A DNA stretch of 64,000 nt from assembly GCA_041661445.1 (NCBI GenBank), contig JBAZUK010000005.1:58548-122547 (forward strand), in the 5' to 3' direction. Position numbers and translations under genes: made by a program. The first letter of the stretch is position 1; each line of letters begins with the position of its first letter. The notes under the pieces were generated by a model that saw only the letters and a program-made list of their open reading frames with translations, did no database searches and was not told the origin of the DNA. Positions 39,310-44,307 of this stretch are shown here, piece after piece. The DNA is from Parachlamydiales bacterium. Its GTDB lineage: Bacteria; Chlamydiota; Chlamydiia; Chlamydiales; SM23-39.

Positions 39310-40215
39310 ATGGAAATAATTACTCTCTACGATAAAAATAAAAAATTAAAAGTTGAAGAAAAAGTCTACTTCAAAAATACGCTGGAGTTTTTATATAACG
39401 GCTCTTTCTTATCAAGATTTTTTGTAAATTCAATTTCAAGATTTTCATTTTTTTCTAAATTTATCGGATTTATTAATAACTTGAAGATCAGTAAATACAA
39501 GATTAAGTCGTTTATCGAGCATTTTCAAATTGATGAAAAAGAATTCGAAAAAAAAACTTCTGATTTCAGATCGTTTAATGATTTTTTTATAAGAAAGCTT
39601 AATAAAAATGCCAGATCGATCGATCCTGATGAAAATGTTTTAGTATTTCCCTGCGATGGCAGATTTTTAGCGATCCCGAATATTAATGATTTTGATTTTT
39701 TTGAAGTCAAAAATCAAAGATTCAATATATTTGAATTTTTAAATGATAAGAATTTGGCAGATCAATACAAAAATGGTTCTATGCTGCTTTGCAGATTAGC
39801 TCCTCAGGATTATCATAGATTTTATTTTCCATCAGATTGCATTCCAAGCGAATCAAAACTTATTAATGGACATCTATATTCTGTAAATCCTATTGCTTTG
39901 AAAAAAAATATTAAAATTTTGTCACAGAACAAAAGAATGATCACAACTTTAAAAACAAAGAATTTCTCAGATGTTCTGTATATAGAAATCGGCGCTACAA
40001 ATGTTGGCTCGATTAATCAAAGTTTCTTCCCCAACACAGAATATAAAAAAGGTGAGGAAAAAGGTTATTTTTCTCTTGGGGGATCTTCAATTGTTCTGCT
40101 ATTTAAAAAAGATACTATTGTTTTTGATCAGGATTTAGTTGAGATGTCAAAAGAAAGAATTGAAACTTTAGCTCATCTGGGTCTTAGATTTGCTTCAAAA
40201 AAAGAAAGATCTTAA
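39310..40215 (+). CDS. psd: phosphatidylserine decarboxylase proenzyme
   Basis: 301 aa; LAPQDYHRFYFP, IGATNVGSI, and self-cleavage-region FSLGGSSIVLLF. Confidence 0.88.
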   Translation: MEIITLYDKNKKLKVEEKVYFKNTLEFLYNGSFLSRFFVNSISRFSFFSKFIGFINNLKISKYKIKSFIEHFQIDEKEFEKKTSDFRSFNDFFIRKLNKNARSIDPDENVLVFPCDGRFLAIPNINDFDFFEVKNQRFNIFEFLNDKNLADQYKNGSMLLCRLAPQDYHRFYFPSDCIPSESKLINGHLYSVNPIALKKNIKILSQNKRMITTLKTKNFSDVLYIEIGATNVGSINQSFFPNTEYKKGEEKGYFSLGGSSIVLLFKKDTIVFDQDLVEMSKERIETLAHLGLRFASKKERS

Positions 40216-40356
40216 ATATTAAATTATTATGTTCAACGATTTTCAATTACTAAGAAGTTCTTAATTTTTTTAACTGCTTTCAATAGTTTAAAAGATATTT
40301 TGTTGCTAGAAGCTTTAGAATTATGAATGTTCTTTAAAAAAAAATCACTTTTTACT

Positions 40357-40388
40357 AAAATGAAGTTGAACTTCAAAAAAGTAAAAGA
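40357..40388. repeat. copy 1 of ~30-nt repeat aaaatgaagttgaaYttcaaaaaagtaaa(a)ga
   Basis: Matches 43647-43677 with one mismatch and one 1-nt gap (by eye). Lies just upstream of the ATPase ATG at 40390. Confidence 0.8.
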
Positions 40389-40389
40389 G

Positions 40390-41553
40390 ATGTTTAAACG
40401 AGAGTTAGAGACTGAGCTTAAGGAACTTGCGAAAGGTTATCCAATAATTACTGTAATTGGACCTCGCCAATCCGGTAAAACTACAATAGTCCAACATGCT
40501 TTTCCAGAAAAATTATATGCAAATTTAGAATATCCCGATACCAGAGCTTTGGCGCTTAAAGACCCAAGAAGTTTTTTAGATCAGTTTCCAAATGGGGCAA
40601 TTCTAGATGAGATTCAGCGAATGCCGGAGCTCCTTTCGTATATTCAGCCACTTGTTGATAAAAAAGATCAAAAGGGCATGTTTATTTTAACCGGGAGCCA
40701 TCAACTTGAATTGCAGGCTGCTATATCTCAATCTTTAGCAGGGCGAACAGCTCTTTTAACATTGCTTCCTTTAAATCTTTCTGAAATTGAAGCTGCCGGA
40801 TTTAATCTTTCCATCGATGAATGGATGCTTAAAGGAGGCTATCCCAGGATTTATAAAGAAAATCTGGATCCAACTAAAGCATATAGGAACTATTATCAGA
40901 CTTATGTTGAGAGGGATCTGCGTCAGTTGATCCAGGTCAAGGATCTGATGCAGTTCGAAAGATTTGTCCAAATCCTTGCAGGTAGGATCGGACAGATCCT
41001 TAATATGGAAGAAATTGGTGGAGAGGTTGGGATTTCTTCACATACAGTAAAACAGTGGATTTCTATTCTCGAAGCATCTTTTATTGTTTTTAGACTGCCG
41101 CCTTATTTTGAAAATTTTGGTAAACGAGTAATTAAGTCACCCAAACTTTATTTCAATGATGTTGGATTGGCTGTTTATCTATTAGGAATTCAAAATGAAA
41201 TTCAGCTTAGTAGAGATCCTCTGCGGGGAAATTTATTTGAAAATGCAGTAATTTTAGAGTTAAAAAAGTATCGGCTAAATCGTGGCCTTGATCCTTCTCT
41301 TTTTTATTATCGGGACATTCAAAAAAATGAGATCGATGTTATTTACAAGAAAGGTCACAATCTAGTTCCAATTGAAATTAAGTCTTCAAAAACCTATCAC
41401 ACAGAATTTATTGAAAAACTTCGTTATTTTCAAATGATTGCAAAAGAGCGTGCTCCTGAAGCATTTTTGATTTATGGTGGGGAGTCCGAACAGAAAATTC
41501 ACTCTGCGAGGCTTTTGAATTTTAAACATGCTGCTAAAGCAGTTGAAGATTGA
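40390..41553 (+). CDS. orphan AAA-type ATPase (P-loop N-terminal domain plus DUF4143-like C-terminal domain)
   Basis: Walker A VIGPRQSGKTT, Walker B-like ILDEIQ, and a C-terminal wHTH/restriction-fold-like region typical of COG1373-type ATPases. The track start is 40327; the family-typical N-terminus begins at MFKRELE (40390). Confidence 0.8.
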   Translation: MFKRELETELKELAKGYPIITVIGPRQSGKTTIVQHAFPEKLYANLEYPDTRALALKDPRSFLDQFPNGAILDEIQRMPELLSYIQPLVDKKDQKGMFILTGSHQLELQAAISQSLAGRTALLTLLPLNLSEIEAAGFNLSIDEWMLKGGYPRIYKENLDPTKAYRNYYQTYVERDLRQLIQVKDLMQFERFVQILAGRIGQILNMEEIGGEVGISSHTVKQWISILEASFIVFRLPPYFENFGKRVIKSPKLYFNDVGLAVYLLGIQNEIQLSRDPLRGNLFENAVILELKKYRLNRGLDPSLFYYRDIQKNEIDVIYKKGHNLVPIEIKSSKTYHTEFIEKLRYFQMIAKERAPEAFLIYGGESEQKIHSARLLNFKHAAKAVED

Positions 41554-43498: not shown

Positions 43499-43646
43499 CT
43501 TATAAGAATAGATGAGTGTCTATAGAGCTTGCCATTTTTATAATCTTTTTACAGGTAGCTTAATGTGCGAAGCTCATTAGATCCTGCATTTAATAAATTC
43601 AAAAATTAGCTTTCACTGATTTTAGAAAACAGTATTTTTTCACCAA

Positions 43647-43677
43647 AAATGAAGTTGAATTTCAAAAAAGTAAAGAA
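43647..43677. repeat. copy 2 of the ~30-nt ATPase-leader repeat, ~12 nt from the nth stop codon
   Basis: aaaatgaagttgaatttcaaaaaagtaaaga. Weaker similarity extends upstream (gctttcactgattttagaaaac against gctttcaatagtttaaaagat at ~40284). Confidence 0.8.
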
Positions 43678-43689
43678 CTGTAGAAAAAA

Positions 43690-44307
43690 TTAGCGATTAA
43701 TTTCTTTGCACATTGGACAGTTTTGAACAATATGACCTTTTGCTTTACAGTATTCTCTTCCAAAATGAATTATCTGCAAGTGAAGTTTGTGCCAGTCTTT
43801 TTTAGGAAAAGTTCTTTTTAAATCTTCTTCGATCTCTTTTACATTTTTGCCTTTTGATAAACCCCATCTTCTTGCACATCTTTGTATATGAGTATCTACA
43901 GGGAAGGCATCCTTTTTAAAGCCCTGGCTCATAATAACTGAAGCTGTTTTGTGGCCGACTCCGGGAAGAGATTCTAGTTCTTCAAAAGTAGAATGCACTC
44001 TGGAATTGTATTTCTGAATCAGGATTTTGCTCAGCTCTAGAACTGCTTTTGTCTTTCTATTAGATAATCCAATGGGCTTAATGATTTTTTTTAATTTGGA
44101 CTCAGAGAATTTTAACATTTCTTCAGGTGTTTTAGCTTTTTTGAATAGATCTGATGTAATTTCATTCACTTTTACATCTGATGCCTGGGCTGATAGCACA
44201 ATAGCGATCAAGAAGGTATATAAATTTTTGTGATGAAGGGTAATTTTTGGGTCTGGAAAATATTTATTTAATATTTTTTTGACTAACAGAGCTCTTTTAT
44301 TTTTCAT
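43690..44307 (-). CDS. nth: endonuclease III (Nth), C-terminus one residue short of the fourth Fe-S cysteine
   Basis: HhH-GPD: LESLPGVGHKTASVIM, FPVDTHIQR. ATG at 44307 overlaps the mnmE TGA (ATGA); the track start at 44319 is a TTG. Ends CKAKGHIVQNCPMCKEINR*. Confidence 0.9.
   Translation of the reverse strand: MKNKRALLVKKILNKYFPDPKITLHHKNLYTFLIAIVLSAQASDVKVNEITSDLFKKAKTPEEMLKFSESKLKKIIKPIGLSNRKTKAVLELSKILIQKYNSRVHSTFEELESLPGVGHKTASVIMSQGFKKDAFPVDTHIQRCARRWGLSKGKNVKEIEEDLKRTFPKKDWHKLHLQIIHFGREYCKAKGHIVQNCPMCKEINR

Follow-up and report, generated by a model that had tools for sequence, protein, structure and literature searches.

How did two unrelated genes come to lie between psd and nth in an Anoxychlamydiales genome, in an interval where pieces of both flanking genes recur? 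The locus belongs to a 64,000-nucleotide stretch of contig JBAZUK010000005.1 (Parachlamydiales bacterium, assembly GCA_041661445.1), which was analysed as a whole and is called the window hereafter; its GC content is ~30%. The genes for phosphatidylserine decarboxylase (psd) and endonuclease III (nth) are convergent, and the local gene order is secA(-), a GNAT acetyltransferase gene, psd(+), an ATPase gene(+), a gene for a leucine-rich repeat (LRR) protein(+), nth(-) and mnmE(-). Three short segments of this interval, namely the 3' end of psd, the leader of the ATPase gene and the 3' end of nth, are present twice. Very probably, the convergent psd/nth junction was duplicated and rearranged long ago, and the interval is the scar of that event.

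Self-alignment of the window recovered all three repeat pairs named in the original prediction, at 81%, 75% and 81% identity and well above chance. Pair (i), the nth 3' end, aligns 41648-41745 with 43687-43784 over 98 nt without a gap (79/98 identical, E value 2e-22), and the TAA stop codon stands at the equivalent position in both copies. The view of 41651-41742 as an nth end decayed to about 80% by substitutions only was thus confirmed. Pair (ii), the psd 3' end, aligns 41740-41787 with 40154-40201 (36/48 identical, E value 2-3e-5) and can be extended to ~55 nt if a single gap of 2 nt is allowed; the score of this pair, 21, compares with a maximum of 15 among 2811 random segments of the window. 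Pair (iii), the ATPase leader, aligns 40333-40385 with 43621-43674 (44/54 identical, E value 4e-8). Its 29-nt core is identical at 28 positions and occurs in two copies only in the 64 kb, where none is expected by chance. The leader is therefore repeated near nth as predicted, at a distance of 15 nt from the nth stop codon and not the 12 nt given originally.

The repeats, designated A (psd end), L (ATPase leader) and N (nth end), recur as A', L' and N' with order and strand kept, in agreement with the arrangement first described. The truncated copies N' and A' abut inside the interval, where the alignments to the two parental gene ends overlap at 41740-41745, whereas intact psd and nth lie outside. 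When the joint segment was compared with the whole window, its top two matches were the 3' ends of nth and psd. Divergence is homogeneous across the three pairs (chi-square p = 0.67; Jukes-Cantor distance 0.21-0.30), a result that a single event could account for. The joint, the truncated inner copies, the intact outer genes and the homogeneous divergence all bear out the head-to-tail duplication of the convergent junction that had been proposed. Coordinates are collected in Table 1.

Table 1. Positions of genes, repeat copies, spacers and the joint in and around the psd-nth interval (window coordinates).
Feature	Position	Strand	Evidence or remark
secA	35462-38527	-	Housekeeping neighbour
psd (phosphatidylserine decarboxylase), intact	39310..40215	+	Pfam PS_Dcarbxylase, E value 1e-54
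Repeat copy A, last ~60 nt of psd	40154-40215	+	Self-alignment
Spacer X, arm 1	40216..40332	.	No arm-2 counterpart; alignment no better than shuffles
L, interrupted palindrome	40333..40389, core 40357-40385	+	26 invariant columns in 7 chlamydial lineages; 4 nt before ATPase ATG
AAA_14 + DUF4143 (PD-(D/E)xK) ATPase, PDC-S01 type, intact, 387 amino acids	40390..41553	+	Pfam, PADLOC
Spacer Y, 3' of ATPase	41554..41647	.	No significant arm-2 match
N', decayed copy of last 31 codons and stop of nth	41648..41745	-	81% over 98 nt; tblastn E value 9e-9
Novel nth|psd head-to-tail joint	41740..41745	.	Overlap of both parental alignments; GAA-type microhomology (three-way display)
A', decayed copy of last ~20 codons of psd, in-frame stop	41740..41800	+	75% over 48 nt
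Spacer Z, upstream of LRR gene, very AT-rich	41801..42157	.	~20% GC; without gene relics
LRR protein, 446 amino acids, lineage-specific orphan	42158..43498	+	Pfam LRR_4 / LRR_At5g56370
Spacer W	43499..43620	.	Local alignment between arms
L', orphaned copy of the ATPase palindrome, in decay	43621..43674	+	No ATPase body 3' of L'
Repeat copy N, last 95 nt of nth (43690-43784) plus 3 nt downstream	43687-43784	-	Self-alignment
nth (endonuclease III), intact	43690..44319	-	Pfam HhH-GPD

The inner copy of the nth end has decayed as a sequence released from selection would. Fourteen of its codons are changed with respect to nth, 12 of them nonsynonymously and 2 synonymously, and the substitutions are split 9/5/5 among the codon positions. 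The C-terminal Fe-S cluster motif has lost two of its cysteines. N' retains a Tyr and a Lys that are present in all relatives; the live nth has changed to His and Glu at these sites. These differences point to neutral drift of N' while the live nth evolved too. N' and the live gene have in common the lineage-specific HIVQN motif and the C-terminal length. Because N' combines these shared features with the ancestral Tyr and Lys, the copying must have taken place in this lineage, later than its divergence from the relatives sampled.

The third repeat carries information on what the duplicated segment contained. L is an interrupted palindrome with outer arms TTTTTACT/AGTAAAAG and inner arms GAAGTT/AACTTC. 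It precedes every chlamydial ATPase orthologue examined (7 genomic contexts) and is found nowhere else in the loci examined. Across lineages it reads TTTTGACT-AAAAT-GAAGTT-G-AACTTC-AAAAA-AGTCAAAA and ends 3-6 nt before the ATG; its invariant columns are consecutive, and the DNA further upstream is unrelated between lineages. L is thus the ATPase gene's own cis-element. L' differs from the functional copies by 2 substitutions and 1 insertion at invariant positions, and its outer stem no longer pairs. Since L fronts every chlamydial orthologue examined, and only these, L' is read as the relic of a lost second ATPase copy. Searches of the non-coding parts by tblastn (E value <= 1) revealed no relics of the ATPase body, the LRR gene or the relatives' cargo, the nth remnant being the only match. 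As the original prediction had it, arm 2 thus retains only the ATPase leader.

The following sequence of steps is the best-supported account of the present arrangement. A segment reaching from ~60 nt inside the psd 3' end to ~95 nt inside the nth 3' end would have been doubled head to tail, with the ends joined by illegitimate recombination at the short microhomology of the joint. The doubled segment would already have held the palindrome-fronted ATPase gene. The outer gene ends would have stayed functional, the inner copies N' and A' decaying neutrally to 75-81% identity. One ATPase copy would have been deleted from just past its start codon to just short of the nth stop codon, leaving L' to decay. 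The region between A' and L' now holds the lineage-specific LRR gene, whose product, with a Sec-type signal judged by eye, would be secreted. This order of events is what the remnants suggest, and the LRR gene may have arrived earlier or later. Three origins are open to it: membership of the ancestral unit with loss from arm 1, insertion into arm 2, or arrival with an allelic fragment.

Whether the ancestral interval contained the ATPase gene, the LRR gene or neither had originally been left to a comparison with related genomes. The convergent psd-nth synteny is kept in 7 Anoxychlamydiales lineages, with an interval of 0.55-5.3 kb (3.5 kb in the window), but neither the ATPase nor the LRR gene of the window is present between psd and nth in any of 8 Anoxychlamydiales loci (7 complete intervals and L001, which ends 3.2 kb past psd, before nth). 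The cargo of the interval varies among these relatives and includes a VIT-like membrane protein, ankyrin-like repeat proteins, a nucleoside deoxyribosyltransferase-like gene and a 1533-amino-acid protein.

Two other loci show scars of similar form. One lies in the window itself, where the NAD(P)HX dehydratase gene (52842-53702) has its final ~300 nt present twice, at 53412-53714 and at 54300-54596. These copies are 88% identical, with small indels, and between them lies an open reading frame (ORF) for a 149-amino-acid membrane protein (53816-54265, no Pfam match). The related locus L010 contains an 84-nt direct repeat with 97.6% identity (5529-5612 and 7920-8003; also L001 13621-13700), composed of the last 63 nt of nth and a 21-nt spacer with the Shine-Dalgarno sequence of the next gene. 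The repeat encloses a secreted BNR-repeat protein and a DDE transposase fragment, and the corresponding empty site is found in L002 (15860-15990). The L010 event is a younger one of the same type, and it affects the same gene end as the psd-nth scar. Duplicative insertions next to the 3' ends of genes thus appear to recur in Anoxychlamydiales.

Several observations weigh against a duplication followed by loss of one ATPase copy. Only ~200 nt, in three blocks, can be aligned between the arms, the cargo genes and spacers being unrelated, even though neutrally evolving remnants just as old can still be recognised; the model therefore has to assume two or more additional indels or replacements. 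Local alignment against shuffles detected no residual homology of spacers X and Y with Z and W. Both other scars contain just one cargo, in the arrangement repeat-cargo-repeat, for which one integration is a simpler explanation than a duplication followed by an exact loss. No relative is close enough to display an intermediate state. Finally, when the L core is considered by itself, 20% decay would predict fewer identical positions than 28/29 (p = 0.013); the identity of L is compatible with such decay once all invariant positions are counted (p = 0.21).

Two variants fit the data: (a) a tandem duplication in situ with at least two indels, and (b) a single-crossover integration in the nth 3' end, which gains some weight from the two other repeat-cargo-repeat scars. 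Campbell-type integration of a circular DNA with a homologous segment leaves repeats of the target homology around the cargo. Repeats of this kind surround the LRR gene (N'...N), the cargo at 53.4-54.6 kb of the window and that of L010. Applied to the psd-nth interval, it would start from a psd3'-LRR-L'-nth3' fragment that came from a co-infecting sibling strain and had closed into a circle when its nth and psd 3' ends were joined illegitimately. A crossover in the nth 3' end of a psd-ATPase-nth chromosome would then have inserted the circle, and the arms would have been unequal from the outset. We consider this course of events possible, with reservations. The present order would result from one event, the restriction of alignable sequence to A, L and N would be accounted for, and the other two scars do have the expected form, with L002 as the empty site for L010. 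However, the lineage-specific features of the remnants demand a very close donor and none is known, an earlier loss of the ATPase gene in that donor is still needed for L', and homologous crossover within ~100 nt is inefficient. In contrast to known integrations of this type, no vector, integrase or att core can be identified, and the integrated DNA would stem from the chromosome of a sibling strain.

The ATPase had been described as an orphan, possibly belonging to a defence or mobile element. Pfam detects AAA_14 (E value 5e-26) followed by DUF4143 (E value 3e-50), the architecture of PDC-S01 / COG1373, and PADLOC assigns the protein to PDC-S01 (PDLC04790, E value 2.5e-96). Walker A (GPRQSGKTT), Walker B (ILDEIQ) and nuclease (D..EIK) motifs can be read in the sequence. 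NCBIfam gave no match, and no solved structure was found by sequence. PDC-S01, an ATPase fused to a PD-(D/E)xK domain, is described as the fourth most common prokaryotic defence candidate and has not been experimentally validated (PMC12988326); the DUF4143-type PD-(D/E)xK domain has a nuclease fold (PMC3424549). The window ATPase shares the domain architecture, the Walker motifs and the D..ExK motif with this type, but it is a single-copy gene among housekeeping genes and has an invariant palindrome directly in front of it in the 7 lineages examined.

The gene is not an orphan. Orthologues with 73-87% identity, mostly of 386-387 amino acids, occur in many Parachlamydiales and Chlamydiales metagenome-assembled genomes (MAGs). 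Locus L018 carries a close one although its SecA and Psd are only 64% and 48% identical to those of the window, and conservation of the ATPase across chlamydiae exceeds that of SecA (64%). Between orthologues, the synonymous distance (dS) is saturated (>=0.9, mostly uncomputable) at a nonsynonymous distance (dN) of 0.07-0.19, and the GC content at third codon positions (GC3) tracks that of each host genome. The saturated dS and host-like GC3 mark the ATPase as an old, strongly constrained resident gene, and on the same grounds a recent horizontal transfer was rejected. Its context differs by lineage, with a group II intron reverse transcriptase, rpsJ, an inverse autotransporter or clpB upstream in some, and lpdA-secA or recQ-murE as surroundings in others. 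No defence island was seen around the gene, the neighbours being housekeeping genes in 7/7 contexts. This conservation pattern is no less suited to a core role in the cell than to defence. In L020 the ATPase stop codon overlaps the start of a Mur ligase gene (murE) by 4 nt (6077-6080), within a cell-wall cluster (Mur ligases, mraY, ftsW), an unusual place for a supposed defence gene. In L036 (13775-15007) an AAA_14/DUF4143 gene lies near nth, between mnmE and ruvA; it was rejected as an orthologue of the window ATPase, being a paralogue with 33% identity and no L palindrome. The corresponding site of the window holds an ORF for 456 amino acids (46048-47418, no Pfam or NCBIfam match).

The ATPase and its palindrome could alternatively form a mobile cassette, with L as its end or recombination site and L' as an excision or transposition footprint. 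The different context of the orthologue in every lineage and the abrupt start of conservation at L would be expected of such a cassette, and the family is common on plasmids and labelled a defence candidate. We find this very improbable, and the mobile-element label did not hold, in view of the saturated dS, the host-like GC3 and the lack of a recombinase or of terminal repeats. Moreover, no locus showed more than one copy, the 3' side has neither a conserved boundary nor a matching repeat, the L020 gene overlaps murE in an operon, and the N'|A' joint is left unexplained. Within the psd-nth interval, neither an integrase or recombinase nor a tRNA was found among the ORFs, and no transposase, terminal inverted repeats or short target-site duplication were detected; the repeats are gene ends of 48-98 nt.

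Concatenation of two strain alleles during assembly would be conceivable, the window being metagenomic. At the assembly level, the joint was compared with two assemblies of other samples. The locus L005, assembled from SRR18595301, is 100% identical to the window over 19.8 kb, including the whole locus and its joint, and L006 (assembly ERZ27249449) spans the joint with 1 mismatch in 13.8 kb. An artefact is very unlikely, since the identical locus was obtained from other samples with different assemblers, and inner copies that are truncated, ~20% diverged and altered by neutral-type changes are not expected of strain mixing. Chance similarity in AT-rich DNA, for which one could invoke the base composition of the window and the shortness of the psd pair, can be dismissed given the E values of pairs (i) and (iii), a pair (ii) score reached by 0/2811 random segments, and a joint segment whose two best matches in 64 kb are the two gene ends, which moreover adjoin each other in the orientation that was predicted.

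The duplicative scar is a further instance of a known, textbook type of rearrangement. Like microhomology-mediated tandem duplication with subsequent degeneration, it shows direct repeats, an end-to-start joint, truncated gene ends at the joint and loss of one duplicate gene. It differs in that the arms of the window are homologous in three short blocks only, with a different gene in each, and in that the scar is old (~0.2-0.3 substitutions per site) yet readable. The value of the scar is that of a dated, readable case of variable-interval remodelling in an uncultured chlamydial lineage, and duplicative events recur beside the same gene end in relatives. The psd-nth interval is also reminiscent of the plasticity zone of Chlamydiaceae, where host-interaction genes accumulate in a hypervariable stretch flanked by conserved genes, as its cargo depends on the lineage. 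It is, however, much smaller and a different, non-homologous locus.

The most reusable result is the conserved palindrome before a PDC-S01-type gene, which offers a testable handle on its regulation. The gene itself, the chlamydial member of a very common unvalidated defence candidate, is very strongly constrained, as a core gene would be. Extension of the ATPase protein from the ATG inside L was rejected, since in three lineages (L019, L020, L029) this codon lies in another frame or soon meets a stop, and L is therefore non-coding. It can be folded as a two-tier hairpin (z down to -5.2), in which 87.5% of cells are paired. Covariation among the 7 sequences did not exceed that of shuffles, so a symmetric DNA operator is equally possible. 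Rfam gave no match at L or L'. The ~40-nt palindrome might serve the PDC-S01-type ATPase as an operator for autoregulation or as a hairpin that blocks translation. Tentatively, we propose that L is a conserved control element of PDC-S01 and that duplicative insertion at gene 3' ends is a recurrent route to secreted host-interaction genes in Anoxychlamydiales (three scars, two in the window and one in L010).

Palindromes were also seen upstream of distant, plasmid-borne homologues of the ATPase, in 2/3 of those checked, and were significant by our scorer only in Allochromatium and Wolbachia. The scorer is ungapped and underestimates L owing to the internal loop of the latter. In these two homologues (45% identical; Allochromatium tepidum L047 340-400, Wolbachia wAlbA L048 355-395), the palindrome stands 7-9 nt before the start codon, and the Allochromatium palindrome has a TGAAGTT half-site in common with the chlamydial L. 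A phage contig (L038, IMGVR_UViG_3300048056_000068) contains at 1247-1290 an L-like hairpin (TTACTAAAATGAAGTTGAACTTCAAAAAGGTAA) that matches the chlamydial palindrome exactly over 25 nt. A Shine-Dalgarno sequence and a short ORF come after the hairpin, and the contig has a terminase-like gene close by. It is the one L-like hairpin among the viral contigs scanned; the remaining matches were discarded as chance matches in coding sequence.

Among the ORFs of at least 40 codons in the psd-nth interval, only the ATPase and LRR genes match a known family, the remainder being short and overlapping. The LRR protein carries cysteine-containing, FBXL-like LRRs with repeated CPNL motifs and a faint match to LRR_FBXL15. 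Its gene has a GC3 of 0.16. The best homologues, only 28-29% identical, come from eukaryotic FBXL and giant-virus-like contexts. The nearest (29%) is encoded at 6328-7650 of L050 (JGI Ga0163109_10001720), a giant-virus-like contig with DUF5824, RING fingers, PhyH, a DNA methylase, many ORFans and a second LRR paralogue. With the eukaryote-like LRR and F-box-LRR proteins of amoeba symbionts and chlamydiae, the window protein shares FBXL-type LRRs with cysteines, fast evolution, lineage specificity and location in a variable region. It differs from them in its low identity to homologues and in having the Sec-type signal instead of an F-box, for which Pfam gave no match.

The nearest genomes to that of the window are Candidatus Anoxychlamydiales MAGs, whose Psd and SecA are 59-69% and 70-79% identical to the window proteins. 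Closer relatives were sought beyond GTDB and JGI in a 5.8-billion-protein database, and none was gained: apart from the same strain, it held no Psd more than 70% identical to that of the window. The GNAT gene and psd of the window are separated by just 31 nt. In relatives, an outer-membrane-protein-like gene lies between them (L001 8779-9819, L002 8797-9846, L003 4806-5960, L036 6797-7837), and the L036 copy matches Pfam Legionella_OMP. Long AT-rich palindromes are located in intergenic regions of the window at 38601-38660, 18323-18379, 13261-13302, 2028-2135 and 55525-55669, the first of them between secA and the GNAT gene.

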